This document shows, piece after piece, positions 7,335-60,179 of a stretch of DNA of 64,000 bases. The stretch spans positions 34,433-98,432 of the forward strand of contig CAMYKY010000010.1 of NCBI GenBank assembly GCA_947259165.1, read 5' to 3'. Made by a program: the position numbers and the translations under genes. This stretch comes from an uncultured Acidobacteriota bacterium (GTDB lineage Bacteria; Acidobacteriota; Vicinamibacteria; Marinacidobacterales; SMYC01). Each line of letters starts with the position of its first letter. Position 1 is the first letter of the stretch. The notes under the pieces are model-generated. The model saw nothing but the letters and a program-made list of their open reading frames with translations. It had not been told where the DNA came from and made no database searches.

Positions 7335-7522
7335 CGTGACGTATTTTCCGGGGTGTTTGCGGCGCGCAGTGGTGTGTTGCAAGAAAACTGCCAGCAACCA
7401 AAGCTCATGAAATGAGCTACTTGGACCTGGGGATGGGGGCAAGTTCCCCTAGGGGCGTGTTAAAACTTTAAACCCGCTGAGAATCCAGCACACCGATCCC
7501 CACTGCTGAAACGGTGACCTTT

Positions 7523-7611
7523 CGTGCCCGTGTCCGCGTGCGTGCCCGTGCCCGATAAATCTTGGTCACGGGTTTTCCTGTGAGTGCTTTTCTTGGTCGG
7601 GCACGGGCACG
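7523..7611. repeat. hexamer-TIR element, copy A: (GTGCCC/GTGTCC)n left arm and (GGGCAC)2 right arm
   Basis: Left arm cgtgcccgtgtccgcgtgcgtgcccgtgcccg, a 44-nt AT-richer core, then right arm cgggcacgggcacg. It sits between the symporter stop and the fliA start. Confidence 0.7.
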
Positions 7612-7620
7612 AAAAGCCAG

Positions 7621-8841
7621 CTACGGCGGCGTCAATTCATGCTCAGCAGCCCCGACCCAGGTCGCGTTCACCAGCTGGCCTACTAGATTCGTCGACGAGC
7701 GCAGCATGTCCAGGGGACGTTCGACACCGAGCACGAGCGCCGCGCCTTCGATCGGAAGTCCTAGGGCGGCGAGAAGGATCGTCAAATTGACGAAGCTCGC
7801 CGCCGGAACGGGCGCTACCGCGAGCGAAGACAGCATCGCGGTCACGATCAAGCTCGTCAAGCCCTGGGCTCCCAATGAGGCGCCGTAGACTTGCGCAATG
7901 AACAACACCGAGATGGCTTGATAGATAGCACTGCCGTCCCGGCCAATCGCCGCACCCAAAGGCAGCACGAAGCTCGCGACTCGTGACGAGAGCCCCATAC
8001 TCTTTTCCATAGCCGCCATCGAGACGGGAAGGGCTGCGGCGGTCGAACAGGTCGCAAAGGTGATCAGAAGCGGCGGCTTCGCCGCGTCGAGGAAACGACC
8101 CACACTCTGCCGCGCCACCACCCGCAGCATCACTCCGTACACGACAACGATATGAACAACGAGCGCGAGCACGACGACACCGGCGTAAGCAGAAAGACTC
8201 CAGAGAATCGAGAGGCCCGATCGACCGACGACCGCAGCCATCAAACCGAAGACACCGAACGGTGCGAGCTGCAAGATCCAACCGGTGATCTTGACGAACA
8301 TCTCCGCAACGCTTCGCGAGAGATCAACGACAGGCTTGCGCTTATCAGCAGGGAGCGCACTCGCGGCAAGACCGACGAGAATCGAGACGAGCAAAACTTG
8401 AACGACGTTGCCCTCGACCGCCGCTCGGATTGGATTATCGGGAACGATACCAACGAGCGTGTCGACGAGAGACTCTCGCGGCGCATCCGGATCCACGTCT
8501 GGAACTTCCTGGCCTTCGAGAAGGCTCGCACGCGCAGCAGCCGACATCGTCGTTCCTGGGCTCAACAACGACCCGATCGAAATCCCGATGATCAGAGCGA
8601 GGAACAGACTGACGAGAATGAATCCGAACGCCCGCAGCCCCATCCGCCCCAACGCTGCCCGTCCTGGTAATCCGGCTATCGCCACGACGAGAGACGCCGC
8701 AACCAAAGGAACGATCACCATCCGAATGAGCTTGATGAACAGCGTCCCCAAGGGCTCGAGGATGGAGGCGGCTTCGCCGAAATACGCACCGACGAGGACA
8801 CCGGCAACGAGCCCAATCGCGACGCGGTTGTGAATCTTCAA
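7621..8841 (-). CDS. dicarboxylate/amino acid:cation (Na+/H+) symporter, DAACS family (GltP-like)
   Basis: Eight or more TM segments with characteristic DAACS motifs (PLVAASLVVAIAGL, VVDLSRSVAEMF, AIGRDGSAIYQAISVLFIAQVYG, MLRSSTNLVGQ). The start is placed at TTG 8841 (LKIHNRVAIG); the track ORF runs to ATG 8991. Confidence 0.8.
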   Translation of the reverse strand: MKIHNRVAIGLVAGVLVGAYFGEAASILEPLGTLFIKLIRMVIVPLVAASLVVAIAGLPGRAALGRMGLRAFGFILVSLFLALIIGISIGSLLSPGTTMSAAARASLLEGQEVPDVDPDAPRESLVDTLVGIVPDNPIRAAVEGNVVQVLLVSILVGLAASALPADKRKPVVDLSRSVAEMFVKITGWILQLAPFGVFGLMAAVVGRSGLSILWSLSAYAGVVVLALVVHIVVVYGVMLRVVARQSVGRFLDAAKPPLLITFATCSTAAALPVSMAAMEKSMGLSSRVASFVLPLGAAIGRDGSAIYQAISVLFIAQVYGASLGAQGLTSLIVTAMLSSLAVAPVPAASFVNLTILLAALGLPIEGAALVLGVERPLDMLRSSTNLVGQLVNATWVGAAEHELTPP

Positions 8842-9133
8842 ACTGGCCGGAGCGTAGCATGATCGGCATTTCGCCGTGAGGGCAGCTTCGACGGAGCCCG
8901 GACGATATCTCACTCCTTCGAAGAGGTCCGATGCGGACGATTCAGCATTCGGTTTCACCACGGAGTCACGGAGAGCACGACGCGAGGACAACCCTTTTCT
9001 CTATGATCCGCCGAGACTCCGCGGTGAAATCGGCGGGCCATTGGGGAGGCGAAATGCGCACTCCACGGGGTCAAGCAAACCGTTCTTTGCTTGGATCTTG
9101 CGCGAGTGCGGAGAAGTTGTTATCACCACTAAT

Positions 9134-12100
9134 ATGAAAGATTCGCCACTCGTCGCCCAGCTGAGCCGCATCGCGTCCGAGCGCATTCTCATCATCGACG
9201 GGGCGATGGGCACGATGATCCAAAGCTACAAGCTGGACGAAGACAGCTTCCGCGGTGACGCCTTTCGCGAGCACTCGATGCCGCTCAAAGGGGCCAACGA
9301 CCTACTCTGCTTGACGCAGCCCAGGATCATCGAGGAAATCCACCAGCGTTTTCTCGACGCGGGCGCCGACGTCATCGAGACGAACACATTCAATGGAACA
9401 TCGATCGCGATGGCGGACTACGGGCTGGAGTCTCAGGTCTATGAAATCAATCGTCAGGCCGCCGTGATCGCGCGTCGCGCCGCTGACGCAGCGACGCAGA
9501 AAACACCCGACCGACCTCGATTCGTCGCCGGCTCGATGGGGCCGACGAACAAGACGGGTTCTATCTCCCCCGATGTCACCAACCCCGCATTCCGCGGCAC
9601 GACCTTCGATGCGTTACGCGATGCGTACTACGAGCAGGTGCGGGGCCTCATCGACGGTGGCGTGGACATCCTTTTGCCGGAGACTGCTTTCGACAGCCTC
9701 AACATGAAAGCAGCGTTGTTCGCGATTCAAGATCTCTTCGAACAACGCGGCGTCATTTTGCCGGTTATCTCTTCTATGACGGTCGTCGACGAGAGCGGGC
9801 GCAACCTGTCAGGGCAAACCCCGGAAGCCTACTGGATCTCGGTCTCGCATGCGCCGTTACTCGCTGTCGGGATCAATTGCGCCCTCGGCCCCTCGACGAT
9901 GCGTCCCTATGTCGAAGAGCTCGCTTCGACGTCAAACGTGCTCGTAAGCTGCGCGCCAAACGCCGGCCTCCCCAACGCTTTTGGCGGCTACGACGAAACC
10001 CCGGAACAAATGGCGCAAACTCTCGGAGAGTTCGCCGCTGAAGGCTGGCTCAACTTCGCCGGAGGTTGCTGCGGCACTACCCCCGAACATATCGAAGCAA
10101 TCGCGGAAAGCGTGCGCCGATACACTCCACACACGCCTTCCCCGTCATCGAGCTTCACACAGCTTTCCGGGCTCGAGCCCCTGACGATCCGGCCCGATTC
10201 CAACTTCATCGTGATTGGCGAGCGAACCAACGTCACGGGCTCTCGCAAGTTTGCGCGTCTCGTCACATCCGGCGCGCTCGAAGATGCACTCGATGTCGCG
10301 AGGGATCAGGTCGAAGGCGGCGCCAATATCCTCGATGTGAACATGGACGAAGGTCTTCTCGACTCCGAGAAAGCAATGACGACCTTTCTCAATCTCGTCA
10401 CCACCGAGCCGGACATCGCCCGGCTTCCCATCATGGTGGACAGCTCCAAGTTCTCCGTAATCGAGGCCGGTCTGAAGTGCCTTCAGGGAAAGAGCATCGT
10501 GAACTCGATCAGCCTCAAAGAAGGCGAAAACGTCTTCACCGCGCAGGCTCGCAAGGTAAGGCAATACGGCGCCGCCGTCGTCGTCATGGCGTTCGATGAG
10601 GAAGGACAAGCGGCCACCACCGATCGCAAAGTGGAAATTTGCAAGCGCGCGTACAAGATTCTCACCGAACAGGTCGGCTTCGCACCACAGGACATCGTGT
10701 TCGATCCCAACGTCCTGACCGTCGCAACGGGCATGGATGAACACAATGATTACGCGTTGGCGTTCATCGACGCGACCAAGCGAATCAAGACAGAGTGCCC
10801 CGGCGCGAAAGTCTCCGGCGGCATTAGCAACTTGTCGTTCTCTTTTCGCGGCAATGACTACGTGCGCGAAGCGATGAACTCGTCGTTTCTTTACTACGCG
10901 ATCCGCGCCGGACTCGACATGGGCATCGTCAACGCCGGACAGCTCGCAGTCTATGACGACGTCGAGCCCGTCTTGCGCGAGCGAATCGAAGACGTCTTGT
11001 TCAACCGCAACTCCGACGCGACCGAAGCTCTGATCGGGTTCGCGGAGGAACAAAAGGGCCCTGGAATCAAGCGAGAGAAGGACGACGCGTGGCGCGAAGC
11101 AACGGTCGAACAGCGACTGTCGCATGCGCTCGTCCGGGGCATCGTTGACCATATCGTGGACGATTCCGAAGAGGCACGGACGAAATACGGCCGCCCATTG
11201 GCCGTTATCGAAGGCCCGCTCATGGATGGGATGAACATCGTGGGGGATCTCTTTGGGGCCGGCAAGATGTTCCTCCCTCAGGTGGTGAAGAGCGCACGGG
11301 TCATGAAAAAGGCCGTGTCCTATCTCGAGCCGTTCATGGAAGAAGAAAAACGCGCTTCGGGAAACACCAGCAGCAAGGCAAAGCTAGTCCTCGCGACCGT
11401 CAAAGGAGACGTTCACGATATCGGCAAAAATATCGTCGGGGTCGTTCTCGCATGCAATGGCTACGAGATTCACGATCTCGGCGTCATGGTCCCCGCCGAA
11501 AAAATCCTGGAAGCCGCGCGTAGCGAGAAAGCGGACTTCATCGGCCTCTCCGGTCTCATTACTCCGTCGCTCGATGAGATGGTACACGTCGCCTCCGAGA
11601 TGCAACGCCAGGGTCTCGAAGTACCTCTGCTAATCGGCGGCGCCACGACATCACGCAAACACACGGCGGTGAAGATTGCGCCGTGCTATCGACACGAAAC
11701 GATTCACGTGCTCGACGCTTCGCGCGCCGTCACCACGGTGAGCGAGCTGTTGAGCGGGGACGCTCGCGCGGATTTTGTCGCCAAAAACCGCGAGGACCAA
11801 GACGTGATGCGACGCGAATACGAGGAGCGCGAGCGAAAACTCCTTCCCTACGAAGCCGCGAAAAGCCAGTCGCTCGCGCTCGAGTGGTGCTCGCAGGACA
11901 TCGCAAAGCCCGATTTTCTCGGAGTCCGCGTTCTCGACTCGGTACCCCTTGCCGAGATCACGGACTACGTCGATTGGACGCCGTTTTTTCATGCCTGGGA
12001 GTTTCGTGGGCTCTACCCGGAGTTGCTCGACAAGCCTGACGCAGGTCCGGCCGCTCGCGAGCTCTTCGACAACGCCCAGAGTCTGGTTCAAGAGCTCATC

Positions 12101-47869: not shown

Positions 47870-49069
47870 TTGAACATGGACACCACGGATCTAGAAGGGA
47901 TTTGGGAGGCACATGCTCGCTACGATCCCCTGTGGGCAATCCTTTCGGACCCTGCGAAGAAAAATCGCGGATGGGAGATCGACCGCTTCTTCGCCTCGGG
48001 GCAGCGAGAAGTTCGATTCCTGCTTCGTGATCTGGAGGTGGCAGGAATTGACGTCCTGCGACGAGACGTACTCGACTTCGGCTGCGGTATCGGCCGGCTG
48101 ACGCAAGCGTTATCACTTCACTTCGAACACGTGGTCGGCGTCGACATATCGCCCACGATGATCGAGCTCGCGGAGGAGCTCAACTCGAGCGGGCCGAATC
48201 CTCATCGTGTTCGTTTCATACGAAACCCAAGCGACGATCTTGCGGTGCTGAGCACGGAGGCGTACGATTTCGTCTACACGAACATCGTTTTGCAGCACAT
48301 TCCGCCGGCGCTCATGAAAAGCTACCTTCGTGAATTCCTTCGAGTCTTGCGGACGGGTGGCGTGCTCGTCTTCCAGCTGCCGTCCCACCCCCGCCCCAAC
48401 GCCGAGCTCACGGTTCGAGCCATGCCCGACGAGGCCTACCGGGCAGAGCTTCGCGTGGACGAATGGCCGCGTGTCGTCGAACCGTCGACTCGAGTCGGAC
48501 TCGCGGTTCAGGTCGTCAATGCCAGCTCTCACGCGTGGCATCCAAACGCGCTCGGTCAGGTCAACCTGGGAAACCATTGGATCGCGCCAGATGGCACCAT
48601 GGAGAGGCAGGACGACGCACGCGCCGGACTTCCCAGAACCGTCAATCCCGGGGAGCACGCGGAAATTCTCATCGGAGTGACAGCGCCCGACCAAGAGGGA
48701 TCGTATCTCTGTGAGCTCGACCTCGTGCACGAGACGATTAGCTGGTTCAAAGATCGCGGCTCGAAAAGTTGTCAGATTCCTATCGAAGTCGCGGTGAACG
48801 CGACTCAGCCGTCGGGACCCATCGAGCCCTCGGCGGCGGCGGTCGAGGCGACGAACCGCTGGACCGATGCATGGAGTGCCGCACAAAGACACCTACCCAC
48901 CCTATCGCCCGCGCTCGAGCCAAAGCCCTTCCCGATGTTCGGGATCCCTCGAGACGAGGTTCTCGATTATCTCGCACGCAACGACGCCACGGTTTTGTCC
49001 GTAACCGAGGACGGCCACGCGGGATGGGATTGGGTCGGCTACCGCTATACCCTCCGCAAAACGGTCTGA
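47870..49069 (+). CDS. class I SAM-dependent methyltransferase with ~200-aa C-terminal beta-rich domain
   Basis: Motif I VLDFGCGIGRLT, post-I DISPTMI and a motif II region. The C-terminal half has no assignable family. Confidence 0.65.
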   Translation: MNMDTTDLEGIWEAHARYDPLWAILSDPAKKNRGWEIDRFFASGQREVRFLLRDLEVAGIDVLRRDVLDFGCGIGRLTQALSLHFEHVVGVDISPTMIELAEELNSSGPNPHRVRFIRNPSDDLAVLSTEAYDFVYTNIVLQHIPPALMKSYLREFLRVLRTGGVLVFQLPSHPRPNAELTVRAMPDEAYRAELRVDEWPRVVEPSTRVGLAVQVVNASSHAWHPNALGQVNLGNHWIAPDGTMERQDDARAGLPRTVNPGEHAEILIGVTAPDQEGSYLCELDLVHETISWFKDRGSKSCQIPIEVAVNATQPSGPIEPSAAAVEATNRWTDAWSAAQRHLPTLSPALEPKPFPMFGIPRDEVLDYLARNDATVLSVTEDGHAGWDWVGYRYTLRKTV

Positions 49070-49524: not shown

Positions 49525-49635
49525 AAGTGCGCCAAAAAACCCAATATTTGGGTTCCTAGGCGCTTGCGACTGCCGACCCTCGACCGGAACTCCGTCAAAG
49601 ACTGAAGTGCAGGGACTTTGCCCCGTCCCCAAGAG

Positions 49636-49651
49636 TGGAACACCGCTTGCA
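49636..49651 (+). promoter_or_regulatory. candidate sigma-54 (-24/-12) promoter for the nos operon
   Basis: TGGAAC-accgc-TTGCA matches TGGCAC-N5-TTGCW with correct spacing, ~105 nt upstream of the cytochrome c start. It overlaps a palindrome CTTGCacGCAAG. Confidence 0.4.
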
Positions 49652-49756
49652 CGCAAGCAGCTGTGGCTCAGCTCAGAACCCAACGGTGATACTGTAGCCA
49701 GGGTTCAGAGCTTTGTATTTTTCAAAACTCTTCAAGAGAAAGGCAGGGTCGGACGG

Positions 49757-50533
49757 ATGAAACGGAAATCGACCATTCTTTTTATTCTGGTCCTAGGAGT
49801 CGCCATGTGGTCGGGGGACACGCTGGCACAGGACGTCGAGCGGGGTAAGGCCGTTTACGATTCGCGCTGTGTCATATGCCACGGTGATCAAGGCGACGGC
49901 AAAGGCCTCATCGGGATTGTGCATCGAGCTCAGCAAAACGGCATGGTGGTCACGATCTACCCTCGAGACTTCACCGCGGGTGTCTACAAGTTCCGAAGCA
50001 CACCTAGCGGCGACCTCCCCACCGACGACGATCTCATGCGCATCGTGACCGAAGGGATTTCGCGTTCGGGGATGCCGTCCCACACGGATATTTCCGAGGC
50101 CGACCGTCAAGCCGTCATCGCGTACATCAAGACATTCTCCAAACGGTGGGCGGAAGAGGAGCCTGGCACACCGCTCGTCATCGAGGCCGCCCCGGCGGCA
50201 GTCGGCTCGGGCGAATCCAGCGGGCGCGGTAAGGACGTCTACGCGACCATGCAGTGCTCCAAGTGTCACGGTGATACCGGCAAGGGCGACGGACCGTCAT
50301 CCGCCGATCTCGAAGACAGCTGGGGCGACAAGATTCTGCCTTTCGATTTCACATCCGGTCCTCTCAAGGGTGGTTCGACGCCGGAAATGGTTTATCGCAC
50401 GTTCATGACCGGCCTCGACGGCACGCCGATGCCTTCCTATCAAGACGCGCTACCCGAGGAGCAGGCGCGGTGGGATCTCGTTTCGTACTGTTTAGAACTG
50501 ATGGCCGGGGCACCCGGCGACACCGACCAATGA
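49757..50533 (+). CDS. di-heme c-type cytochrome (probable electron donor to NosZ)
   Basis: Signal peptide MKRKSTILFILVLGVAMWSG and two CxxCH sites (CVICHG, CSKCHG). It overlaps the nosZ start. Confidence 0.85.
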   Translation: MKRKSTILFILVLGVAMWSGDTLAQDVERGKAVYDSRCVICHGDQGDGKGLIGIVHRAQQNGMVVTIYPRDFTAGVYKFRSTPSGDLPTDDDLMRIVTEGISRSGMPSHTDISEADRQAVIAYIKTFSKRWAEEEPGTPLVIEAAPAAVGSGESSGRGKDVYATMQCSKCHGDTGKGDGPSSADLEDSWGDKILPFDFTSGPLKGGSTPEMVYRTFMTGLDGTPMPSYQDALPEEQARWDLVSYCLELMAGAPGDTDQ

Positions 50534-50571
50534 AGGCTAGAGGAATGCGAATGTCAAACAGGAGGGATTTA

Positions 50572-52383
50572 ATGGTTTCTACGCGGTTTCTTATCGTCCT
50601 ATCGGTCGCACTCGCCGTCGGTCTCACTTTTGGCTGCGCCGGCGGCGGTTCGCAGGAGGGCGGCGGCTCTGGAGCGGCGGTATCACACGCAGACCACGAA
50701 GTAGCTCCGGGCGAGCTCGACGATTACTACGGTTTCTTCAGCGGAGGCCACTCGGGCGAGGTTCGCGTCCTAGGCATTCCGTCTATGCGCGTTTTGAAAC
50801 GCATCCCGGTTTGGAACATCGACCCGGGTAGCGGTTGGGGGATTACCAACGAGAGCCGGGCACTACTGGGCGGCATGCAAACCGGCGACACCCACCACGT
50901 CCACGGCTCCTACGAAGACGGGACCTACGACGGCAAATGGCTCTTCGTGAACGACAAGCTCAACAATCGCATGGCGCGCATTCGTGTCGACCTCATGGAA
51001 GTTGATGCCGTCGTCAACGTCCCGCACGCACAAGGAGCCCACGGACTCTTCCCGCAGCGCTACCCCTCGACCGAGTGGGTCGTTCTCAACAGCGAGTTCC
51101 GCACGCCGCTTTCAAACGACGGTCGCGGCGACATGCTCGATGCATCCACCTACGGCGGCGTCCATACAATCATCAACGCCGCCGACATGGAAATCGTGGC
51201 TCAAGTCACAACGCCGGTGAACCTCGATCTCGCGGCCACCGACTACCAGGGCAAGTACTCGTTCGCAACGTCCTACAACAGCGAAGGCGGTGCGACGATC
51301 TCCGAAATGCTCGCGAGCGATCGTGACTATCTCGTGGTCTTCAACTGGGAGGCGATCAAAGAAGCGCTCGCCAACAACAACTACCGAATCGTCGACGACA
51401 TCAAGATCCTAGATGGCACCGAGGGCACAGGGCTCACTGCCTACATCCCGATCCCGAAGAACCCGCACGGCGTGAACATCAGCCCTGACGGGAACTACGC
51501 TGTCGCTTGCGGCAAAGTGTCTCCGACGGTGAGTATCATCGACATCAACAAGCTCGACGACCTCTTCGCCGGTAACATCGAGCCTAGGGACGCTGTCGTG
51601 GGCGAGCCCGAAGTAGGTCTCGGCCCCCTGCACACCACTTTCGACGGTCGGGGCAACGCGTACACATCGCTGTTCATCGACAGCCAGGAAGTGAAGTGGA
51701 ACATCCAAAAGGCCATCGACCTGTACTCCAACCCCGTCGAGGGTGAGACCGCCGTCGTCGATCGTCTCGATATCCACTACCAGGTCGGGCATACCATGGC
51801 TTCGATGGCCGAGACGAAGGAAGCGGACGGAAAGTACCTCATCTCGCTCAACAAGATCTCCAAGGATCGCTTCTTGAACGTGGGCCCGCTCAAACCGGAG
51901 AACGATCAGCTCATCGACATCTCGAACGATGAAATGATTCTCTTGAAAGACGAGCCCGCGTACATCGAGCCGCACGATTGCATCATCGTCAGACGAGACC
52001 TCATCGAGCCCCATGTCGTACACCGAGCGGTCCTCGAAGAGCATCCCTTGGCGGTCACGCAGAGCTCGGTAGAACGCGTTGGCAACAAGGTGACGGCGCG
52101 CATCACGGCGTCGGCACCGGTTTATGGCCTCCAGGAAGTGGTCGTCAATCAAGGGGACGAGGTAACGTTCATCGTCACCAACACCGATGAGATACCCGAT
52201 TTGGCGCACGGCTTCGCGATCTCGAACTACAACGTCAGCTTCGTCGTCGGCCCATTCCAGACGAAGTCAGTAACGATCACTGCGGACAAGCCGGGTATGT
52301 ATTGGATCTACTGCACGAACTTTTGCCACGCGCTTCACCTAGAAATGCGGATGCGGTTCGTCGTCAATCCACGCTCGACTTAG
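50572..52383 (+). CDS. nosZ: nitrous-oxide reductase NosZ
   Basis: Conserved N-terminal beta-propeller (DDYYGFFSGGHSGEVRVLGIPSMRVLKRIPVWN, GDTHHVHGSYEDGTYDGKWLFVNDKLNNRMARIRVD). C-terminal cupredoxin CuA site (YCTNFCHALHLEM). The signal peptide type is ambiguous: an RRDLM motif is present, but a strong AGGAGGG precedes the ATG at ~50575, which would give a Sec-type or lipoprotein signal. Confidence 0.95.
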   Translation: MVSTRFLIVLSVALAVGLTFGCAGGGSQEGGGSGAAVSHADHEVAPGELDDYYGFFSGGHSGEVRVLGIPSMRVLKRIPVWNIDPGSGWGITNESRALLGGMQTGDTHHVHGSYEDGTYDGKWLFVNDKLNNRMARIRVDLMEVDAVVNVPHAQGAHGLFPQRYPSTEWVVLNSEFRTPLSNDGRGDMLDASTYGGVHTIINAADMEIVAQVTTPVNLDLAATDYQGKYSFATSYNSEGGATISEMLASDRDYLVVFNWEAIKEALANNNYRIVDDIKILDGTEGTGLTAYIPIPKNPHGVNISPDGNYAVACGKVSPTVSIIDINKLDDLFAGNIEPRDAVVGEPEVGLGPLHTTFDGRGNAYTSLFIDSQEVKWNIQKAIDLYSNPVEGETAVVDRLDIHYQVGHTMASMAETKEADGKYLISLNKISKDRFLNVGPLKPENDQLIDISNDEMILLKDEPAYIEPHDCIIVRRDLIEPHVVHRAVLEEHPLAVTQSSVERVGNKVTARITASAPVYGLQEVVVNQGDEVTFIVTNTDEIPDLAHGFAISNYNVSFVVGPFQTKSVTITADKPGMYWIYCTNFCHALHLEMRMRFVVNPRST

Positions 52384-52396
52384 GCAGACTGCGCTC

Positions 52397-55300
52397 ATGA
52401 GTCACGGAGGACTAAGAGCGCTGATTCTCGTAGGGCTCGGGGCGATCTTCGCCTCGAGCCCCGTCGGGGCTCAGCTTCCGTTCGGCGAACAACAGTACGA
52501 GTACGAGCTTTCGGACGTCCTACCGGGCGCCTCGAGCTTCGAGCAAGTCGAGGATCCGGAGCACTACTGGCGAGGCTACGCCGACGAGGGCCAACAACAG
52601 CTCGTCGGTTTCGTTTTTCTGACCGACGATCTCGTCGACATCCCCGGGTATTCCGGCGAGACCATGAACACTCTCGTCGGGATGGATACCGAGGGGACGA
52701 TCACCGGGATCAAGATCGTCCATCACTCGGAGCCCATCGTTCTCATCGGTCTCGACGAGTCCGTTATTCACGAGTTTACGGGTCAATACACTGGCAAGAG
52801 CATCACCGATCGCATCCTCATCAGTAACGAGCCGAAGGAAGGCTACACCGTCGTCGACGCCATCAGCGGAGCTACCGTGACCGCCGTGGCAGAGAACGCG
52901 ACCGTGCTCGAGGCGGGTCGTTTGGTCGCTCGCGCCGAAGGGATCGTCAGCGCAGCAGACATTCGCTCGCGAAGACCCAGCATGGTTTTCGAGGAGCTCT
53001 CGTGGACGGAGCTCGTTTCCCGAGGCGCCATCGGTTCGATTTCGGCAGAGCCCGGGGAGCAGGGTTTACCGTCCGGAGCGGGGAGCGTCGATGTCCGGTT
53101 CACCGTCTTGGATCCGCCGAGCGTCGGTCAAAACCTCCTGGGCGAGCGTTTCTACACCGTCGTGAAAGAGCGTCTTGCCAACGATGGAGGCAGCGCCCTG
53201 TACATCGGAAGCATCGCGGGAGTTTCTTTCAAGGGGGCCGGCTTCGCACGCGGCGGCATCTTCGACCGGTTTGTCATCGAGCAGTCAGGAGATCTCTTCG
53301 TCTTCAAGGATCTCGACTACATGGGTTTTCCGGCGCTCGAGCTCGACGATGCTCCCCGCTTCCAGGAAGGCGGGATCTTTTTCGTCGACGAGGGGTTCGA
53401 CCCCGCGGAGGAGTTCTCGTTTCGACTCACGTTTCCGTATCGCGTGGCCGACCAGCGAACCTACGCGACGCTCATCGCCGACTTCGGATTGCCCAGTAGG
53501 TTCATCGAGTCAGACCAGCCGTTCTGGGTGAGCCGATGGCAAGCGGCATGGGGCGCAGTGCTGTTCACCGGGCTGCTCTTGGGGGTCATCACCACGGCGT
53601 TCGTGTTCAAGGAGCGCATGACGCCGCATCGTAAGCTTCTACACAACACGACGGCGCTGCTCGCCGCGGTTGTCCTCGGACTCATTTTCAAAGCCCAACC
53701 GAGCACGACGCAGATACTCACTCTTTTTGGCTCGCTCGCGAGACTCGAGTTCCCCAAGGAAATCTTCCTGTCCGAGCCGCTCATCTTCATGCTGTGGATC
53801 TCGATCGCAGTCACCCTCGTCATCTGGGGTCGCGGATTCTTCTGTGGCTGGGTGTGCCCGTACGGCGCACTACTCGAGTCCTTCATCTCCGTGTGGCACA
53901 AGCTCGCACCCAAGAAACTGCAGAAAAGAATCGACGCCTGGCGTCCGCCACCGTTTCTCCGCTACGGAAAGATGTTCACGTTCGTGGTCATCCTCCTCGT
54001 CTCCTTCGCTAGCCTGCCGCTCGCCGAGGCACTCGACGAGATCGAGCCGTTCAAGACGTTCGTTCTGCACCTCGCTCGGCCTTCGGCCTTCGTCATTTAC
54101 TTCGTGCTCATCACCCTGGTCTCGGTCGTCAGCTATCGATTCTTCTGCCGGTTCATGTGTCCTCTCGGCGGCGCACTCGCCATCCCGTCGGCGAGGAAAC
54201 CGCTTCTTCCTTTGTACCGCTACGAGACGTGCACAAACTGCAAGATCTGCGCGAAAGGTTGCGAGCCCCAGGCGATCTCGTTCGACACGGGCGTCATCGA
54301 CTATCAAGAATGCCTCCAGTGTTGGGACTGCCAGGCGACCGGGAAGAACGAGGGCGTCTGTCCCGAGCTCATCGTCTCCAAGAAAGAGAACCGTGCGCCC
54401 AGATATCTCGTTGTCAGCATTCTCTTGATGATCTTGGGAACACCCGCCACACCGGAAGCGGAGGAAATTCAGGTGCAACCCGGCGGCCTCGAGCATGCCC
54501 TGGCTGCTGCGAGCGACGGTGATACTCTCGTGCTCGCGTCGGGAGTCCATCCGGGCGCCCTCATCCTCACGAAGTCCGTCTCGCTGCGCGGACAACCGGG
54601 CGCAATTCTCGACGGTGGCGGAACCGGCCACGCTCTCATGATCGATGCACCCGCAGTGACGGTCGAGAACCTGACCGTGCGCAACTGCCGCGTCGACGAC
54701 GAGTACGCCGACACCGGTATTTGGGTCGAGAAGGCTTCCAAGGGCACGCGACTCATCGGCAACACTGTCGAGTCTTGCCGCTTCGGCATCTGGATCCACG
54801 GCTCACAAGAGACCGAGGTTATCGACAACCAGGTAATCGGCATCGAAGAGCTGACTCAGAACCAGCGCGGAGACTGCATCCATCTGTGGGACGCCGACGG
54901 GACCAAGGTGTCGGGGAACAAGATCAGACACTGCCGCGACGGAATTTACATGGAGCTCACCAGCGAGGGGGAGATCGAGAACAACCAGATCTTCGACTCG
55001 CGCTACGCGGTTCACACCATGTGGTGCGATCGCAGCCGCTACATCGACAACTACGCGTCCGGGAACCTCGTCGGTTTGGCGCTCATGTTCTCCTCGCACA
55101 TCGAATCGAGAGGGAACATCCTTCACAATAACCGGACGCACGGCATGCTGTGGATTCAGGTCACTCGTGGAAAAGCCCTTGACAACGTCATCATCGGCAA
55201 TACCAAAGGCATCTTCGTCTATAACTCGCTCTACAACGAGATCCGAGGTAATCTGATCGCACGGAACAATCTGGGCGCGCACTACTGGGGCGGCTCCGAA

Positions 55301-55708
55301 GACAACGTCATGGAGCAAAACGCCTTCATCGATAACGAGATCCAAGCCAAATACGTTGCCGCGAAAGACCAGCAGTGGAACGGGAACTTCTGGAGCGATT
55401 ACGGTGGGTGGGACATGGACGAAGACGGCACCGGCGAGACGCCGTATCGCTCGAACACACTGGTCGACGCGCTTCTTTGGCAGTACCCGCACTCCAAGTT
55501 CCTGCTCGCGAGCCCGGCGTTTCAACTTCTGGCCCTGGCCGAAAGAGAGTTCCCCGTGATCACCTATCCGAAAGCGGTCGACTCATCGCCGCTGATGTCG
55601 CCGTCCATGGCCGAGTGGGAGTCGCTCCTGGAACGCTATCCCGGCAATCCTCAGCAGTACTATTTGGAGATGCAGAAGCTTCCTCATCTGCCCGGAGAGG
55701 TCGACTGA
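52397..55708 (+). CDS. nosR-nosD: NosR-like (FMN-binding + NapH-type FeS membrane + ferredoxin) protein fused to NosD (periplasmic copper-binding beta-helix protein)
   Basis: Residues 1-~680 contain an FMN_bind motif (ISGATVTAV), a polytopic membrane region with CxxxCP motifs (FFCGWVCPYG, FFCRFMCPLG) and a 2x[4Fe-4S] C-terminus (CTNCKICAKGC..CLQCWDCQ). After one further TM segment (YLVVSILLMILG), residues ~700-1103 show NosD-like parallel beta-helix repeats (NTVESCRFGIWIHGS, NKIRHCRDGIYME, NQIFDSRYAVHTMW, GNLIARNNLGAHYWG). A single continuous ORF. Confidence 0.8.
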   Translation: MSHGGLRALILVGLGAIFASSPVGAQLPFGEQQYEYELSDVLPGASSFEQVEDPEHYWRGYADEGQQQLVGFVFLTDDLVDIPGYSGETMNTLVGMDTEGTITGIKIVHHSEPIVLIGLDESVIHEFTGQYTGKSITDRILISNEPKEGYTVVDAISGATVTAVAENATVLEAGRLVARAEGIVSAADIRSRRPSMVFEELSWTELVSRGAIGSISAEPGEQGLPSGAGSVDVRFTVLDPPSVGQNLLGERFYTVVKERLANDGGSALYIGSIAGVSFKGAGFARGGIFDRFVIEQSGDLFVFKDLDYMGFPALELDDAPRFQEGGIFFVDEGFDPAEEFSFRLTFPYRVADQRTYATLIADFGLPSRFIESDQPFWVSRWQAAWGAVLFTGLLLGVITTAFVFKERMTPHRKLLHNTTALLAAVVLGLIFKAQPSTTQILTLFGSLARLEFPKEIFLSEPLIFMLWISIAVTLVIWGRGFFCGWVCPYGALLESFISVWHKLAPKKLQKRIDAWRPPPFLRYGKMFTFVVILLVSFASLPLAEALDEIEPFKTFVLHLARPSAFVIYFVLITLVSVVSYRFFCRFMCPLGGALAIPSARKPLLPLYRYETCTNCKICAKGCEPQAISFDTGVIDYQECLQCWDCQATGKNEGVCPELIVSKKENRAPRYLVVSILLMILGTPATPEAEEIQVQPGGLEHALAAASDGDTLVLASGVHPGALILTKSVSLRGQPGAILDGGGTGHALMIDAPAVTVENLTVRNCRVDDEYADTGIWVEKASKGTRLIGNTVESCRFGIWIHGSQETEVIDNQVIGIEELTQNQRGDCIHLWDADGTKVSGNKIRHCRDGIYMELTSEGEIENNQIFDSRYAVHTMWCDRSRYIDNYASGNLVGLALMFSSHIESRGNILHNNRTHGMLWIQVTRGKALDNVIIGNTKGIFVYNSLYNEIRGNLIARNNLGAHYWGGSEDNVMEQNAFIDNEIQAKYVAAKDQQWNGNFWSDYGGWDMDEDGTGETPYRSNTLVDALLWQYPHSKFLLASPAFQLLALAEREFPVITYPKAVDSSPLMSPSMAEWESLLERYPGNPQQYYLEMQKLPHLPGEVD

Positions 55709-55712
55709 CTCG

Positions 55713-56603
55713 ATGATTCGCTTTGACCGTGCCACCAAGACCTTCGGCTCCTTGGAAGCGCTTGCGCCGCTCGATCTCGAGATCAAGGACAGCGAATGGC
55801 TCGGGGTCTTCGGTCGCAACGGCTCGGGCAAAACGACGCTGTTGCGAATGCTGGTGGGGCTGTCGCAGCCGTCCGGCGGACAACTCCTGATCGACGGCAA
55901 GCCGCCCGGCCCGGAGGACTGGCGAGAGTTTCGGCGCTCGCTCGGTTTCATGCCGGAGCGGGTTGCGCTATTCGACAACCTTACCGGTGAGAAAACGCTA
56001 CGGTATTTCGCGCGACTCAAACAGGTCGACCTAGGCGAAGTCATGCCAATCCTCGAGCGCGTCGGACTGGCGGACGCGGCCCATCGGAAGACCTCGGATT
56101 ACTCCAAGGGAATGCGTCAACGCTTGAACCTCGCGCAAGCGCTGCTGGGGGATCCGAAGTTCCTCGTCCTCGACGAGCCGATCGAAGGTCTCGACGCTCA
56201 CGGTGTGCGCGATTTCTTCGAGCTGCTGAAAAGTGTGAAGGGACGCACGGTCGTGTTCTCGTCGCACCGGCTTCCGCTCATCTCTCGGATCGTCGATCGA
56301 ATCTGCATTCTGAGTCAAGGCAAGATCAAAGCGCTCGGAACGGAGGATGAGCTCTACGAACAGGTCAACCTTCCAGTCCGAGTCGTGATCCATCCCGCGG
56401 ACAGCGCGTCCACGCGCCTGGCTGCCGCCGTCGACAAGCTCGACTCGGCGTCTCTGGTGAGCCAAAACGGTCGTCTCGTCGTGAGCGTGGCGCAAAAGGA
56501 CAAGCTGCGGTTTCTCAGCGACCTGCAAGCTCTGAGCTCCGAGATGCACGACATCCGCATCGAGGAACCCTCTCTCGAGGAGGTGCTTCTTGAAACGGGT
56601 TGA
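55713..56603 (+). CDS. nosF: ABC transporter ATP-binding protein NosF
   Basis: Walker A GRNGSGKTTL, signature YSKGMRQRL, Walker B LVLDEP, in the nos context directly after nosD. Confidence 0.9.
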   Translation: MIRFDRATKTFGSLEALAPLDLEIKDSEWLGVFGRNGSGKTTLLRMLVGLSQPSGGQLLIDGKPPGPEDWREFRRSLGFMPERVALFDNLTGEKTLRYFARLKQVDLGEVMPILERVGLADAAHRKTSDYSKGMRQRLNLAQALLGDPKFLVLDEPIEGLDAHGVRDFFELLKSVKGRTVVFSSHRLPLISRIVDRICILSQGKIKALGTEDELYEQVNLPVRVVIHPADSASTRLAAAVDKLDSASLVSQNGRLVVSVAQKDKLRFLSDLQALSSEMHDIRIEEPSLEEVLLETG

Positions 56604-57423
56604 CGCGGTCTGGAGCATCGCTCGAAAAGAGTTATCTGACCGGCTGCGGAACCAGTGGATCTGGACGGTGAGCCTTCTCGTTCTCGCGGCAACCCTCGCG
56701 ATCGCCTTTCTCGGCGCAGCACCCGTGGGTGTCGTCGGCGCTCACGGAGGCGGCGCGATCCTCGCGAGCATCATGAACCTCGCCGTCTACCTCGTCCCCC
56801 TTTTGGCGTTGGTCATGGGCGCGGGGGCGATCATCGACGAGAAGCGCCGCGGGCTGCTGGATTTGATCCTCGCCTACCCGATCTCGTCGAGCGAGTACTT
56901 TCTCGGGACGTTTTTGGGCTATGCTCTCGCGCTCGCAATCGCTCTCGTCGCGAGTTTCGTCCCCACCGGCGTGGTCCTCAGCATGACCACAGGGATCAAC
57001 GTCTTTCAGTACAGCCTTCTCCTCGTGCTCATTCTCGGCCTCGGCACGAGCTTTCTCGCGCTCTCGTTCCTGATCTCGATTCTTTCACGAGACCCCGCGC
57101 GCGGCATCGCCTCGTCAGTGCTCGTATGGATATTCGCGGTGCTGGTATTCGACCTCGGGCTCGTGGGACTCCTCGTTGGGTTCGGGGGGCAAATTCCAGC
57201 GCCGGCGTTTGGCGCCATGATGCTGTTGAACCCAACGGACGTATTTCGATTGATCGCGTTTACCTGGGTCGGAAGCGCGTCGTCACCCCTGGGGCTCGCC
57301 ACGGTGAGCCCTCCTTTTCCAGCGGTGGTGCTCGTGAGCGCCATGACAGCTTGGGCGATCGTGCCGCTTTGGCTCAGCCACCGCTTGTTTCAAAAACGCC
57401 TAGCTCTGGACAGGTTGATATGA
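56590..57423 (+). CDS. nosY: ABC-2 type permease NosY
   Basis: Six TM helices. It overlaps the nosF stop and shows the typical nosFY translational coupling. Confidence 0.85.
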   Translation: MKRVDAVWSIARKELSDRLRNQWIWTVSLLVLAATLAIAFLGAAPVGVVGAHGGGAILASIMNLAVYLVPLLALVMGAGAIIDEKRRGLLDLILAYPISSSEYFLGTFLGYALALAIALVASFVPTGVVLSMTTGINVFQYSLLLVLILGLGTSFLALSFLISILSRDPARGIASSVLVWIFAVLVFDLGLVGLLVGFGGQIPAPAFGAMMLLNPTDVFRLIAFTWVGSASSPLGLATVSPPFPAVVLVSAMTAWAIVPLWLSHRLFQKRLALDRLI

Positions 57424-58100
57424 CAAAGAAAGACTACGACTCATTTGTTTTCAGCGTTCTTCTCGTTGCTTTCACTCTAATTCTCGCCACCGGTTGCGAC
57501 ACCCTAGCCGGCGAGCCGGTCCTCAAAGGACGCGTCGACATCGGTGCAGGCGAAGCTCCCGCCGTCGTCTACTTGAAAAACGTGCCGGGGGGGCTCGTAC
57601 CCGAAACCGACACCGTGATCACCCACCTGCCGGACGGAACCTTCGACCCTCCCGTCAGCATCGGCTTCGTCGGCAACGAATTCGTCTTTCGCAACGAAGA
57701 CGACGAGCTCCACACCACGCACCTCTATATGCATCTGGCCTACCAGGAGAAGATATCCGGACGTCCGATCGAAAACGGTGCCACCCTCTACAACATCGCT
57801 CTTCCGAAGAAGGATATGGAAGTGCGGCGACCCATCAAGACATATCACCATTTCGGCGACGAGACAGGAGTCATCGACGTGCGGTGCAACCCTCATCCCG
57901 CCGAGGGCGCTGCCGCGCTCGTCTTCGACCACCCTTACGTCGTCGTGACCGAAGCCGATGGAACGTTCGAGATGCCCAACGCCCCCCCTGGAACGCATGA
58001 GCTCTGGGTCTGGCACAACGGCGAAACGCGACTGTGGCAGAGCGTGGAAGTCAAAGAGAGTGGCCCGACGGAGGTTACCGTAGGTATGGGAGGCTCCTAG
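57420..58100 (+). CDS. cupredoxin-like copper lipoprotein with C-terminal CarboxypepD_reg-like domain
   Basis: ATGA overlap with the nosY stop. Lipobox LILATGCD. Type-1 Cu ligand pattern (HLYMH ... CNPHP). C-terminal DGTFEMPNAPPGTHELWVWH beta-sandwich. Frame-overlap with nosY explains the long track ORF 56655..58100. Confidence 0.55.
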   Translation: MTKKDYDSFVFSVLLVAFTLILATGCDTLAGEPVLKGRVDIGAGEAPAVVYLKNVPGGLVPETDTVITHLPDGTFDPPVSIGFVGNEFVFRNEDDELHTTHLYMHLAYQEKISGRPIENGATLYNIALPKKDMEVRRPIKTYHHFGDETGVIDVRCNPHPAEGAAALVFDHPYVVVTEADGTFEMPNAPPGTHELWVWHNGETRLWQSVEVKESGPTEVTVGMGGS

Positions 58101-58104
58101 ACCA

Positions 58105-58650
58105 ATGCTTCTTTCCACTTTCGCACTGGCGCTTCTTCTCAGCGGCGCGGGAGACGGTGAGCCCTTCCCCTCGTTCGCGCTCGAAAACTTCGACGGACGG
58201 TCGTTCTCGAATAAATCGTTTACAGGGAAGACCACCATTGTCGTACCGACCTACGCCAAGTGCATTTTTGCATGCCCGATGATCACGTTCTTTCTCACGG
58301 AGTTGGACAAAGAGCTCGGAGCTCCGGCCAACCTCCAATACGTTCACGTGTCCGTGCAACCGAGCGAGGATACCGCCGAGGAGATCCTTGAGCATTTCGA
58401 GGAACACTCGATCGACGCGACTGCCGACCCGCGGTGGATGTTCATTAACGGGCCCGATTCGGAGGTTGCGGAGTTCCTCTCCGACGCGGATGTGCAAGTG
58501 ACCAGGACCCAAGTCGATGAAGGCGTTCTGATCGAGCACACCACGCGCATTTTCGTTGTCGGTCCGCAAGGTGAGACTCTGGCAACGTTCGACAGCTATT
58601 TTTGGGATAAGAAGGAGATGCACCATGCGCTTCGATACGCAATCGAGTAG
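58105..58650 (+). CDS. SCO1/SenC family copper chaperone (thioredoxin fold)
   Basis: CxxxCP motif (YAKCIFACPMI) and a conserved His (HTTRIFVVGP) in a ~180-aa thioredoxin-like protein inside the nos cluster. Confidence 0.75.
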   Translation: MLLSTFALALLLSGAGDGEPFPSFALENFDGRSFSNKSFTGKTTIVVPTYAKCIFACPMITFFLTELDKELGAPANLQYVHVSVQPSEDTAEEILEHFEEHSIDATADPRWMFINGPDSEVAEFLSDADVQVTRTQVDEGVLIEHTTRIFVVGPQGETLATFDSYFWDKKEMHHALRYAIE

Positions 58651-59686
58651 AGAACTGAATCGAAGGGATTTCATCCGAGTCGCCGGGCTCGGAACTGCAG
58701 CCGCTCTCACCGGAGGGCTTCACCCTCTCGACGCTGCCGACTTCGACCCCGCAGGCGTTCGCCTCATGGAGTTCGACGTCAGCTACCGCACGCAAGTCAT
58801 GAAGCTTCCGAAAGACGCGGAGAACGTACAAATCTGGATGCCGCTGCCGCCAAACAACGCCGGTCAAATGATCTCGAACTTCGAGGTCGACTCCCCGTTT
58901 CCTCACAAGTTCACGCGGGACGCCACCTTCGGGACGAGGATGCTGCACGTCGAGACCGGCAAGCAGAAAACCCCGTTCGGTGTCGAAGCTCGCTACCGCG
59001 TAACCCGCAAACAGGTGGGCATCGAGAAGGCCACGCTCAGCGACGAGGAGCTCGCGAAATACTTGAAGCTCACCAGCAAGGTGCGTTATACGCCCGACGT
59101 CGAGCTGTTCGCACGAGAAATCCTCGGCGACGAGAAAGATCCCTACAAAATGGGACGACTCGTTTTCGACGGCATCCGCGATGCACTGTTCTACGACAAG
59201 ACGATCCCCGGATGCGGCACTGGCGACACGCAGTGGATCATGAAATACCGCCGCGGCAAGTGTGACGACTATCATGCTCTGGCGATGGCGATCTTGATCT
59301 CGAACGGCGTTCCCGTGCGTTGGGAACAGGGTTTTCCGCTTCCGTTCCCCGAAGGCGGCAAGGTCGCAAGCGGCGAGCTCGAAGGCGACTGCACCGGCTC
59401 GCATTGCTGGATAAGTTTCTACGCACCGTCCCACGGATGGGTCCCCATAGACGTTTCCGAAGGCGACAAGGGCGCCCCCAACAGCGATTTCTTCTTCGGC
59501 AACCTGTCACCAAACCGCTTTCAAGTCTCGGTGGGCCGGTCGGCGACGCTGAACCCCGCGCAGGGCGGCGACCCTCTGCCGACGTTCGCATTCGCGTACG
59601 CCGAAGCCGACGGCATCCCTCTCGTCTACTTGATGAACTACGAAAACATCATCAAGTACGACGTGACCCGGGTGGAGATGGCCTAA
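58625..59686 (+). CDS. Tat-secreted transglutaminase-like cysteine protease domain protein
   Basis: Twin-arginine signal (SRELNRRDFIRVAGLGTAAALTG). Transglutaminase core (GKCDDYHALAMAILISNGVPVRW ... H ... D). AAGGAGA upstream of the ATG. Confidence 0.65.
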   Translation: MRFDTQSSRELNRRDFIRVAGLGTAAALTGGLHPLDAADFDPAGVRLMEFDVSYRTQVMKLPKDAENVQIWMPLPPNNAGQMISNFEVDSPFPHKFTRDATFGTRMLHVETGKQKTPFGVEARYRVTRKQVGIEKATLSDEELAKYLKLTSKVRYTPDVELFAREILGDEKDPYKMGRLVFDGIRDALFYDKTIPGCGTGDTQWIMKYRRGKCDDYHALAMAILISNGVPVRWEQGFPLPFPEGGKVASGELEGDCTGSHCWISFYAPSHGWVPIDVSEGDKGAPNSDFFFGNLSPNRFQVSVGRSATLNPAQGGDPLPTFAFAYAEADGIPLVYLMNYENIIKYDVTRVEMA

Positions 59687-59702
59687 GGTGAAATTAGCAG
59701 CA

Positions 59703-60179
59703 ATGGTATTGGCGGTCGCGATGTGCGCGGCCGCCTTGCGGGCGGACGAAGTCGCCGAAGAAGGCCAAGCCCCACCGCACTTCGCCCTCCCCGACGAGAA
59801 TGGTGAAGTCCACGACCTCGCTGACTTCATCGGCCGCCCGACGATTCTGTACTTCACCCACAACATGTGCCACTACTGCACACAAATCATCGCGTTCCTC
59901 AAACGCGCCCACGCAAAATACGAAGGCACCGACCTCGCCATCTTGACGTTGAACGTCTGGGCCGCTGACGACAAGTTCATCATCCGCTACAAAGAGGCCA
60001 TGGGCCTGCCTTTCACGATGCTCGCCGGAAAAAACTCACAGCTACTACGCGACTACGAAGTCAACTACGTCCCCATCATCGTTTTCATCGGACGAGACGG
60101 CAAGATCCGCCACATCTACCACCACTACGTGTTGCAGGGCGATTTCGAAAAAACCACCGCCGAGATCGTAGAAGAATAG
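59703..60179 (+). CDS. TlpA/ResA-like thiol:disulfide oxidoreductase (thioredoxin fold, CxxC)
   Basis: Signal peptide and CHYC active site in a redoxin-type context (PTILYFTHNMCHYCTQ). Confidence 0.7.
   Translation: MVLAVAMCAAALRADEVAEEGQAPPHFALPDENGEVHDLADFIGRPTILYFTHNMCHYCTQIIAFLKRAHAKYEGTDLAILTLNVWAADDKFIIRYKEAMGLPFTMLAGKNSQLLRDYEVNYVPIIVFIGRDGKIRHIYHHYVLQGDFEKTTAEIVEE

Follow-up and report, generated by a model that had tools for sequence, protein, structure and literature searches.

A single reading frame joins NosR to NosD across an internal NosD signal peptide in a clade I nos cluster of an uncultured Acidobacteriota bacterium

Nitrous oxide is a greenhouse gas, and NosR and NosD are helper proteins of the enzyme that destroys it. 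In the clade I systems of Pseudomonas stutzeri and Paracoccus denitrificans, NosR and NosD are separate proteins. NosR of P. stutzeri has a periplasmic flavin mononucleotide (FMN)-binding domain, two CX3CP motifs and, on the cytoplasmic side, an Fe-S domain holding the cysteines for two [4Fe-4S] clusters; for NosR, roles as electron donor, as keeper of the active CuZ state and as regulator have been proposed (PMC7660919). Among the nos accessory proteins NosR is the least understood. NosD acts within the NosDFY complex, along a copper route that runs from NosL to NosD and on to NosZ (bioRxiv 10.64898/2025.12.16.694761). The present analysis concerns a 64,000-nucleotide stretch of DNA from an uncultured Acidobacteriota bacterium (GenBank assembly GCA_947259165.1, contig CAMYKY010000010.1), called the window below, in which one open reading frame (ORF) at positions 52397-55708 encodes NosR and NosD together. 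Each part has the domain set and domain order of its separate counterpart in P. stutzeri and Paracoccus denitrificans; the FMN domain, the two CX3CP motifs and the cysteines for two [4Fe-4S] clusters are likewise found in the NosR half, and the usual clade I partners nosZ, of the twin-arginine translocation (TAT) type, nosF and nosY are all present in the window too. Unlike in these two species, however, NosR and NosD form one polypeptide with the NosD signal peptide inside it, the gene order is nosZ-R-D-F-Y instead of nosR-Z-D-F-Y, and no NosL gene was detected, a different lipoprotein gene and a Sco1/SenC gene lying 3' of nosY. The fusion of the adjacent nosR and nosD genes is genuine and evolutionarily maintained in a clade I cluster. 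Both halves belong to known families, and what is new is the architecture together with the retained internal signal peptide; a literature search for NosR-NosD fusion, nosRD and Vicinamibacter found no published description of such a fusion.

The fusion ORF starts with ATG and continues for 1103 codons with no internal stop (Table 1). Pfam models detect FMN_bind, Fer4_5 twice and, at residues 810-1004, NosD/Beta_helix, and the N-terminal 660 residues correspond to NosR, the C-terminal 410 to NosD, each over the whole length of the family. The NCBIfam equivalog model for NosR, NF046105, is covered from position 18 to 679 of 680 by residues 35-663 (E 8.6e-127, 424 bits), and the NosD model TIGR04247 from position 1 to 376 of 377 by residues 698-1067, with 389.8 bits against a cut-off of 300. 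Because both models are matched end to end, each half of the fusion is a complete protein and no fragment. In an alignment of 37 fusions, all functional residues (catalytic and ligand) of both halves are invariant, many NosD residues included; these comprise I156, A159, T160, V161 and T162 of the FMN domain, the CX3CP motifs C483-x3-C487-P488 and C584-x3-C588-P589 of the membrane module, and the ferredoxin cysteines C612, C615, C618, C622, C639, C642, C645 and C655. The FMN domain matches RnfG in the PDB, where no solved structure of NosR was found. The NosD half matches P. stutzeri NosD (7o0y_A) both by sequence (E 3e-70) and in Foldseek, superposing on it with a TM score of 0.82 at 33% identity (E 4e-22). 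An AlphaFold2 model of the whole fusion, built from 81 sequences, has predicted local distance difference test (pLDDT) values of about 80-93 in the NosR part and 90-97 in the NosD part. A first-pass annotation of the window had proposed a single ORF fusing NosR to NosD, and it holds both for the uninterrupted frame and for the identity of its two parts.

Fusions of the same kind, which the first-pass annotation had suggested looking for, are found in many other genomes. Among 5.8 billion protein clusters searched, upwards of 50 independent ones, each about 1100 amino acids long, match the fusion protein at 97-100% query coverage and 52-80% identity; they are drawn from NCBI, JGI, ENA and Logan assemblies, and all carry FMN_bind, Fer4_5 and NosD. 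The frame is also single and continuous in five GTDB species representatives: a Vicinamibacterales metagenome-assembled genome (MAG) (L001, 70% identity), Acidobacteria UBA2161 (L007, 68%), a 'Deltaproteobacteria' MAG (L002, 58%), an uncultured Gemmatimonas (L003, 56%) and an uncultured bacterium (L008, 55%). For the nos genes of the window, the best matches are Vicinamibacterales and Acidobacteria MAGs at 68-83%. An exhaustive HMMER search of 1.84 billion representatives at 50% identity returned about 600 NosR or NosD representatives at E ≤ 1e-30, three of which are fused: P0016 from the window's own clade, P0135 (39% identity, 1097 amino acids) and P0137, of a Nitrospirota type (762 amino acids). 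The NosR-NosD architecture is rare overall, yet the rule within one clade. Four further loci that seemed to hold single ORFs (L014, L047, L057, L058) were rejected, the long open frame in this high-GC DNA not being the NosR frame.

The closest unfused relatives show how small the step between the two states is. L081, L006 and L012 share with the window the order cytochrome c, nosZ, nosR, nosD, nosF, nosY, differ from it by a stop codon between nosR and nosD, and carry NosD signal peptides that align to the window junction; their proteins are 54-59% identical to those of the window, and their lineages are nested in the fused clade. In the metagenomic L081, whose synteny is identical to that of the window, a gap of 20 nucleotides separates nosR from nosD. 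In L006, a Thermoanaerobaculia MAG, the two genes overlap at an ATGA stop/start, so that a one-base indel would fuse or split them. L012, a Nitrospirota MAG, has an in-frame stop and a new start among otherwise fused Nitrospirota loci. The Nitrospirota loci (L004, positions 6935-10300, L005, L013 and L012) are a variant in themselves, as their NosR is split right behind the periplasmic FMN domain, which forms a separate protein of 358-385 amino acids, while the transmembrane (TM) and Fe-S part is fused to NosD (751-770 amino acids) in L004, L005 and L013; in L012 a stop lies between the two. Fused or split, these loci retain the signature of a signal peptide at the junction. In neighbour-joining trees of the NosR part (distance-based, 634 columns, 200 bootstraps), the fused proteins alone were never monophyletic (0/200), but they were so in 200/200 bootstraps once the unfused L006 and P0058-60 were included, in 200/200 with P0065 added, and in 189/200 with the Nitrospirota variant added as well. 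Sporadic fusions are also seen in split lineages. One 90% cluster holds the fused P0063 and P0134 next to at least four contigs with separate NosR (691 amino acids) and NosD (409 amino acids), the split members being P0121-P0133. Since the cluster mostly consists of split genes, P0063 was rejected as an independent ancient fusion and is either sporadic or an error; P0064, alone in its cluster and isolated as a fusion within an unfused proteobacterial clade of the tree, was set aside likewise. The nesting of unfused lineages in the fused clade and the sporadic fusions in split proteobacterial lineages show repeated fusion and fission, and such toggling is as expected if both states yield the same mature products.

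How the two halves are joined depends on the topology of the NosR part. Hydropathy indicates an N-terminal signal peptide, with a KD19 peak at residues 9-27 and an AlphaFold2 helix at 5-18, followed by five TM helices between the FMN and ferredoxin domains, at residues 386-404, 413-431, 458-476, 528-546 and 565-583 (KD19 1.66-2.16). Because the number of helices is odd, the Fe-S domain is placed in the cytoplasm, in agreement with the published topology of NosR (PMC7660919). We strongly infer that the junction crosses the membrane N-in/C-out and sets NosD in the periplasm, its necessary place of action, as the first-pass annotation had supposed. From the last ferredoxin Cys-Pro onwards the junction reads ...CPELIV-SKKENRAPR-YLVVSILLMILG-TPATPEA/EEIQVQPGG..., a slash marking the predicted cleavage site here and below. 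It divides into an n-region (SKKENRAPR), an h-region (YLVVSILLMILG) and a c-region (TPATPEA), with the family-consensus cleavage site after A688 and an alternative in the window protein after A684 (T-P-A/T, 682-685). The pattern is family-wide: a basic n-region leads into a hydrophobic core about 12 residues long, which ends at a Pro/Gly break ahead of a small-x-small motif, the h- and c-regions measuring 19 residues from the last Arg to the Ala in most members. Across the 37 aligned fusions, column -1 is Ala in 36 (entropy 0.18 bits) and column -3 is A, S, G, T or V in 32 (2.24 bits), whereas columns -2 (3.21 bits) and +1 (2.73 bits) are highly variable; Pro stands at column -6 in 18 (1.92 bits). 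Together these columns give the (-3,-1) pattern classically seen in substrates of signal peptidase I, and the cleavage signature is under clear purifying selection within an otherwise freely varying linker. A rule-based cleavage-site finder misparsed six of the proteins (P0024, P0046, P0049, P0010, P0030, P0045), and the column statistics are the cleaner measure.

The joining segment has recognisable counterparts in NosD proteins that are made on their own. The junction, the -1 Ala column included, aligns to the signal peptides at the N-termini of 12 free NosD proteins and to the NosD of the unfused sister L081 (...GPAVAVA/GTRIVTPGPG versus ...ARA/ETRRVAPG), and in the exhaustive HMMER search free NosD representatives align their own residues 3-13 with query residues 668-675. 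In the AlphaFold2 model the junction falls below a pLDDT of 50, contains a helix of five residues only and is not packed against the NosR bundle, and the first NosD strand begins two residues past A688. These alignments and the AlphaFold2 result show the segment to be the old signal peptide of NosD. The first-pass annotation had seen an extra TM segment here; a hydrophobic segment is indeed present (residues 670-681), but it is short and, with a KD19 value of 1.45, falls below the five true TM helices, and it represents no additional TM helix but the Sec signal peptide that belongs to NosD, with a conserved signal peptidase I motif. NosD of the window is not synthesised as a separate precursor headed by its Sec signal peptide; that peptide lies internally, after NosR. 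The junction contains no usable in-frame start codon ahead of the hydrophobic core, the start-type in-frame codons lying only at residues 677, 678, 680 and 693, inside or past the core, and NosD of the window can therefore be made only through the fused chain. If that chain is cleaved, the mature NosD product may equal free NosD.

The reading we favour, with a probability of roughly 0.55, is that signal peptidase I cuts the junction and releases NosR and free NosD from a common precursor. The probable origin of the fusion is a nosR gene that lost its stop codon where it overlapped nosD or lay only a short distance ahead of it. It is strongly inferred that the NosR part inserts as usual, with its N-terminal signal peptide removed, the FMN domain in the periplasm, five TM helices with the two CX3CP motifs, and the domain for two [4Fe-4S] clusters in the cytoplasm, and that the old NosD signal peptide then leaves the cytoplasm N-in/C-out and directs Sec export of the NosD beta-helix to the periplasm. 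There signal peptidase I would cut behind the conserved Ala. Mature NosD, once freed, would join NosF and NosY and hand copper to NosZ, while NosR would keep one additional C-terminal membrane hairpin. The fusion would thus amount to a membrane 'polyprotein' that ensures 1:1 co-synthesis and adjacent insertion of NosR and NosD and leaves the mature proteins unaltered.

Cleavage is considered the most likely outcome because the segment has lost none of the features that mark a signal peptide as cleavable. The upstream module has its end in the cytoplasm, and throughout the family an n-h-c sequence with a (-3,-1) site comes after it. Its probability rests on the selected site, the core of signal-peptide length, the lack of a spacer before the NosD fold and the easy toggling between fused and split genes. 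A comparable case is the product of Bradyrhizobium japonicum fbcH, reportedly a cytochrome b-c1 precursor that is cleaved at an internal signal peptide. There, too, a polytopic redox protein with a cytoplasmic C-terminus is said to be followed by a Sec signal peptide and a periplasmic partner in one ORF, and the topological logic is alike; the proteins and the pathway are others, however, and cleavage, reportedly experimental for FbcH, is deduced from sequence for NosR-NosD, so that the resemblance is one of mechanism, not of family. Several points weigh against cleavage. The window protein and P0002 do not obey the (-3,-1) rule at the consensus site, where both carry Pro at position -3 (TPEA/EE and APEA/KE); P0002 lacks any site that fits the rule, and the window has its T-P-A/T site four residues upstream. 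The clade is mostly fused across deep divergence, which suggests that the fusion has an advantage of its own, possibly tethering, and the -1 Ala could in principle be retained for another reason. The signal-peptide and topology calls, moreover, are hand-applied rules.

The alternative that survives best holds that the junction remains uncut as a sixth TM helix, with NosD covalently held on NosR in an obligate NosR-NosD(FY) supercomplex, an arrangement that would set the flavin/Fe-S electron module beside the copper-delivery machinery. We regard a permanent tether as possible, at odds somewhat below even. The fusion persists in the more than 50 clusters at identities as low as about 52%, and lineages at 39-42% have it too, which suggests a benefit beyond neutrality, and the Nitrospirota TM/Fe-S part is still fused to NosD in three of four loci although NosR itself is split. 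The 19 uncharged residues of the h- and c-regions could just span the bilayer, and the Pro at -3 in the window and P0002 means that cleavage may be poor in their subclade. A near-invariant Ala at -1, a small residue at -3 and a variable -2, however, have no obvious role in a permanent anchor. The core of about 12 residues with a Pro/Gly break behind it is shorter and less hydrophobic than the true TM helices, and no packing against the NosR bundle is predicted for it. There is also no linker, the NosD fold starting two residues past the site. Left uncleaved, the chain would fix the beta-helix to the membrane by its N-terminal end; in NosDFY structures NosD sits on NosY with its C-terminal end. 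Finally, close relatives function with separate genes. The first-pass annotation had gone further and taken the fusion to couple electron delivery and copper-centre maturation physically; as the joining segment is the Sec signal peptide of NosD with a conserved signal peptidase I motif, permanent tethering is not established, nor is the coupling that would follow from it, and tethering is the less likely reading. A narrower form of the same idea, in which the junction stays uncleaved at least in the window's subclade with its Pro at -3 and NosD is anchored to NosR in an obligate NosR-NosDFY supercomplex, we consider rather unlikely. If it were true, NosR would work with the copper/sulfide delivery machine in the assembly or repair of CuZ, beyond donating electrons to mature NosZ, and the fusion would be a Rosetta stone giving a direct handle on the long-unclear function of NosR.

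The N-terminal part of the fusion might be suspected of being another FMN-bind/NapH-like redox membrane protein instead of NosR. The 424 bits of the NosR half fall short of the curated cut-off of 1000 for NF046105 in spite of end-to-end coverage, and NapH/MauN and RnfG models also match parts of it. The NapH model, however, reaches 59 bits and the RnfG model 34 bits, both on sub-domains of the NosR half only, and PF27538, labelled NosR, is among the precomputed Pfam matches of the source databases. The whole NosR architecture is present with its SGAT, CX3CP and eight-Cys motifs invariant, the gene lies directly 3' of a TAT-type nosZ, and unfused relatives at 36-59% identity are annotated as NosR/NirI and occupy the nosR slot of proteobacterial nos clusters. 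Neither a placement of the NosR half outside NosR/NirI nor a loss of the NosR-specific periplasmic domain was seen. It is accordingly very improbable that this part is anything but NosR, its family-level membership being clear even though the naming rule of the equivalog is not satisfied. The weakest alternative, hardly credible, is an artefact of assembly or sequencing or a pseudogene in which a missed stop or frameshift falsely joins two genes: a single-base indel at an ATGA overlap would suffice, fusions such as P0063 and P0134 do occur sporadically in a mostly split cluster, and P0057, P0061 and P0062 have frameshift-like C-termini, but a masked stop or frameshift is excluded because the same frame continues across the junction in over 50 independent clusters, drawn from four data sources, as well as in the five species representatives, with sequence conserved through the junction and to either side of it, catalytic and ligand residues of both halves invariant and both halves predicted to fold with high confidence. 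As to noise at the locus, the C-termini of P0057, P0061 and P0062 are garbled in the way typical of frameshifts, P0018 has an internal junk insertion and P0029 a repeat-rich, mis-called N-terminus, all attributable to assembly or gene calling.

Fusions between nos accessory genes and their operon neighbours are a repeated occurrence. NosB is fused to NosC2 in clade II (PMC11409646) and nosP to nosQ in Dyella (bioRxiv 10.64898/2025.12.16.694761), and NosD is also found fused behind other membrane domains or ahead of NosF (P0219, P0259, P0272). All these have different partners, and none joins NosR to NosD. In P0219, P0259, P0272 and P0242 the domains ahead of NosD are polytopic membrane domains other than NosR; P0219 (1149 amino acids) holds in one chain two copies of a non-NosR membrane domain, NosD, a TM segment and a NosF-like ATP-binding cassette (ABC) ATPase, and a signal-peptide-like segment again stands ahead of its NosD (...LISLFSAASTLNA/ATLTV).

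NosR-NosD is a simple fusion of operon neighbours, yet it lends comparative support to an association of NosR with NosDFY. The fusion is kept across MAGs of Acidobacteriota, Gemmatimonadota, Nitrospirota, a Binatia-like lineage and 'Deltaproteobacteria', and such persistence across phyla speaks, on comparative grounds, for NosR and the NosDFY copper-delivery machine being synthesised and inserted next to each other, and probably also working there. Unfused genomes, in which ATGA-type coupling of nosR and nosD is common, point to the same association. Cleavage by signal peptidase at the internal signal peptide would place the fusion among the very few bacterial membrane polyproteins known to be processed in this way; uncleaved, the fusion would define a NosR-NosDFY supercomplex. 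In automatic annotation, fusion proteins of about 1100 amino acids are labelled 'hypothetical', 'NosR/NirI regulator' or 'NosD, partial', and surveys that count nosR and nosD separately in environmental nitrous oxide reducers can therefore miscount.

Table 1. Features of the nos region, with positions counted from the first nucleotide of the window (aa, amino acids or residue numbers of the fusion protein).
Feature	Position	Strand	Basis and remarks
Lhr-type large helicase, 1486 aa	43021-47481	+	DEAD, Helicase_C, DEAD_assoc, WH_Lhr; upstream of the nos cluster
S-adenosylmethionine (SAM)-methyltransferase-like ORF	47870-49069		after the Lhr-type helicase
Dihaem c-type cytochrome	49607-50533	+	Pfam Cytochrome_CBB3 and Cytochrom_C, two stretches; upstream of nosZ
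nosZ, TAT-dependent clade I	50470-52383	+	TIGR04244 805 bits (cut-off 625); twin-arginine N-terminus
nosR-nosD fusion ORF	52397-55708	+	1103 aa; full-length homologues; AlphaFold2 mean pLDDT 84.3
Sec signal peptide of NosR part	52397-52471	+	aa 1-25, ...SSPVGA/QL; cleavage position predicted
Periplasmic FMN-binding domain	52646-52897	+	aa 84-167; Pfam FMN_bind; flavinylation motif D-x-I-S-G-A-T160
Membrane module, five TM helices and two CX3CP	53552-54163	+	hydropathy; Pfam Fer4_5 twice
Ferredoxin-type domain, cytoplasmic, eight Cys for two [4Fe-4S]	54230-54364	+	invariant Cys; NCBIfam 4Fe-4S dicluster matches
Junction, internal Sec-type signal peptide of NosD	54377-54460	+	aa 661-688; junction alignments
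NosD part, right-handed beta-helix then C-terminal helices, periplasmic	54461-55705	+	aa 689-1103; TIGR04247
nosF-like ABC ATPase	55713-56603	+	Pfam ABC_tran; directly 3' of nosD in all loci
nosY-like ABC-2 permease	56590-57423	+	Pfam ABC2_membrane_2; synteny kept
Putative lipoprotein, slot expected for nosL	57423-58100	+	...LILATGC/DTLAG; weak CarboxypepD_reg-like matches
Sco1/SenC-type copper chaperone	58105-58650	+	Pfam SCO1-SenC E 1.4e-16; kept in fused loci
TAT-signal transglutaminase-like protein	58556-59686	+	
Thioredoxin-like protein	59688-60179	+	

The genes around the fusion form a nos cluster. Its layout had been called non-canonical, and it does run nosZ-R-D-F-Y instead of nosR-Z-D-F-Y, but this is not peculiar to the fusion: nosZ-nosR-nosD-nosF-nosY is the commonest order in the 81 loci fetched, mostly unfused ones of Beta- and Gammaproteobacteria, and the textbook order nosR-nosZ-nosD is found in L061 and L062 only. 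The dihaem cytochrome c is likely a periplasmic electron carrier of the cluster, and its gene is kept at the same position in the fused L001, L003, L007 and L008 and in the unfused L081. The nosZ gene, which ends 14 nucleotides ahead of the fusion ORF, probably has its real start at the ATG at 50551 (MSNRRDLM...). Read from there (positions 50551-50650, plus strand), NosZ begins MSNRRDLMVSTRFLIVLSVALAVGLTFGC/AGG, a twin-arginine motif followed by a possible lipobox Cys, and NosZ of the window may be a TAT-exported lipoprotein.

On the far side of nosY, no NosL (PF05573) gene follows, the lipoprotein gene in that slot giving no NosL match. An ORF at 57494-58000 (plus strand) was rejected as nosL, being an Arg-rich artefact in the wrong frame that overlaps the real gene in the 56655-58100 frame. 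The lipoprotein, Sco1/SenC, transglutaminase-like and thioredoxin-like genes are kept as a set in the fused L001, L003, L007 and L008 and in Nitrospirota, and they may represent an alternative branch of copper delivery.

Some other NosR proteins are extended at one end. Many betaproteobacterial NosR proteins are about 870-900 amino acids long, with a C-terminal extension of about 170-200 amino acids between the ferredoxin domain and nosD (among them L020, L027, L029, L039, P0110, P0081, P0085 and P0094); the extension of P0110 has no Pfam match. P0181, with 1162 amino acids, carries about 500 residues of unknown type N-terminal to a full NosR, which is matched at residues 507-1146.

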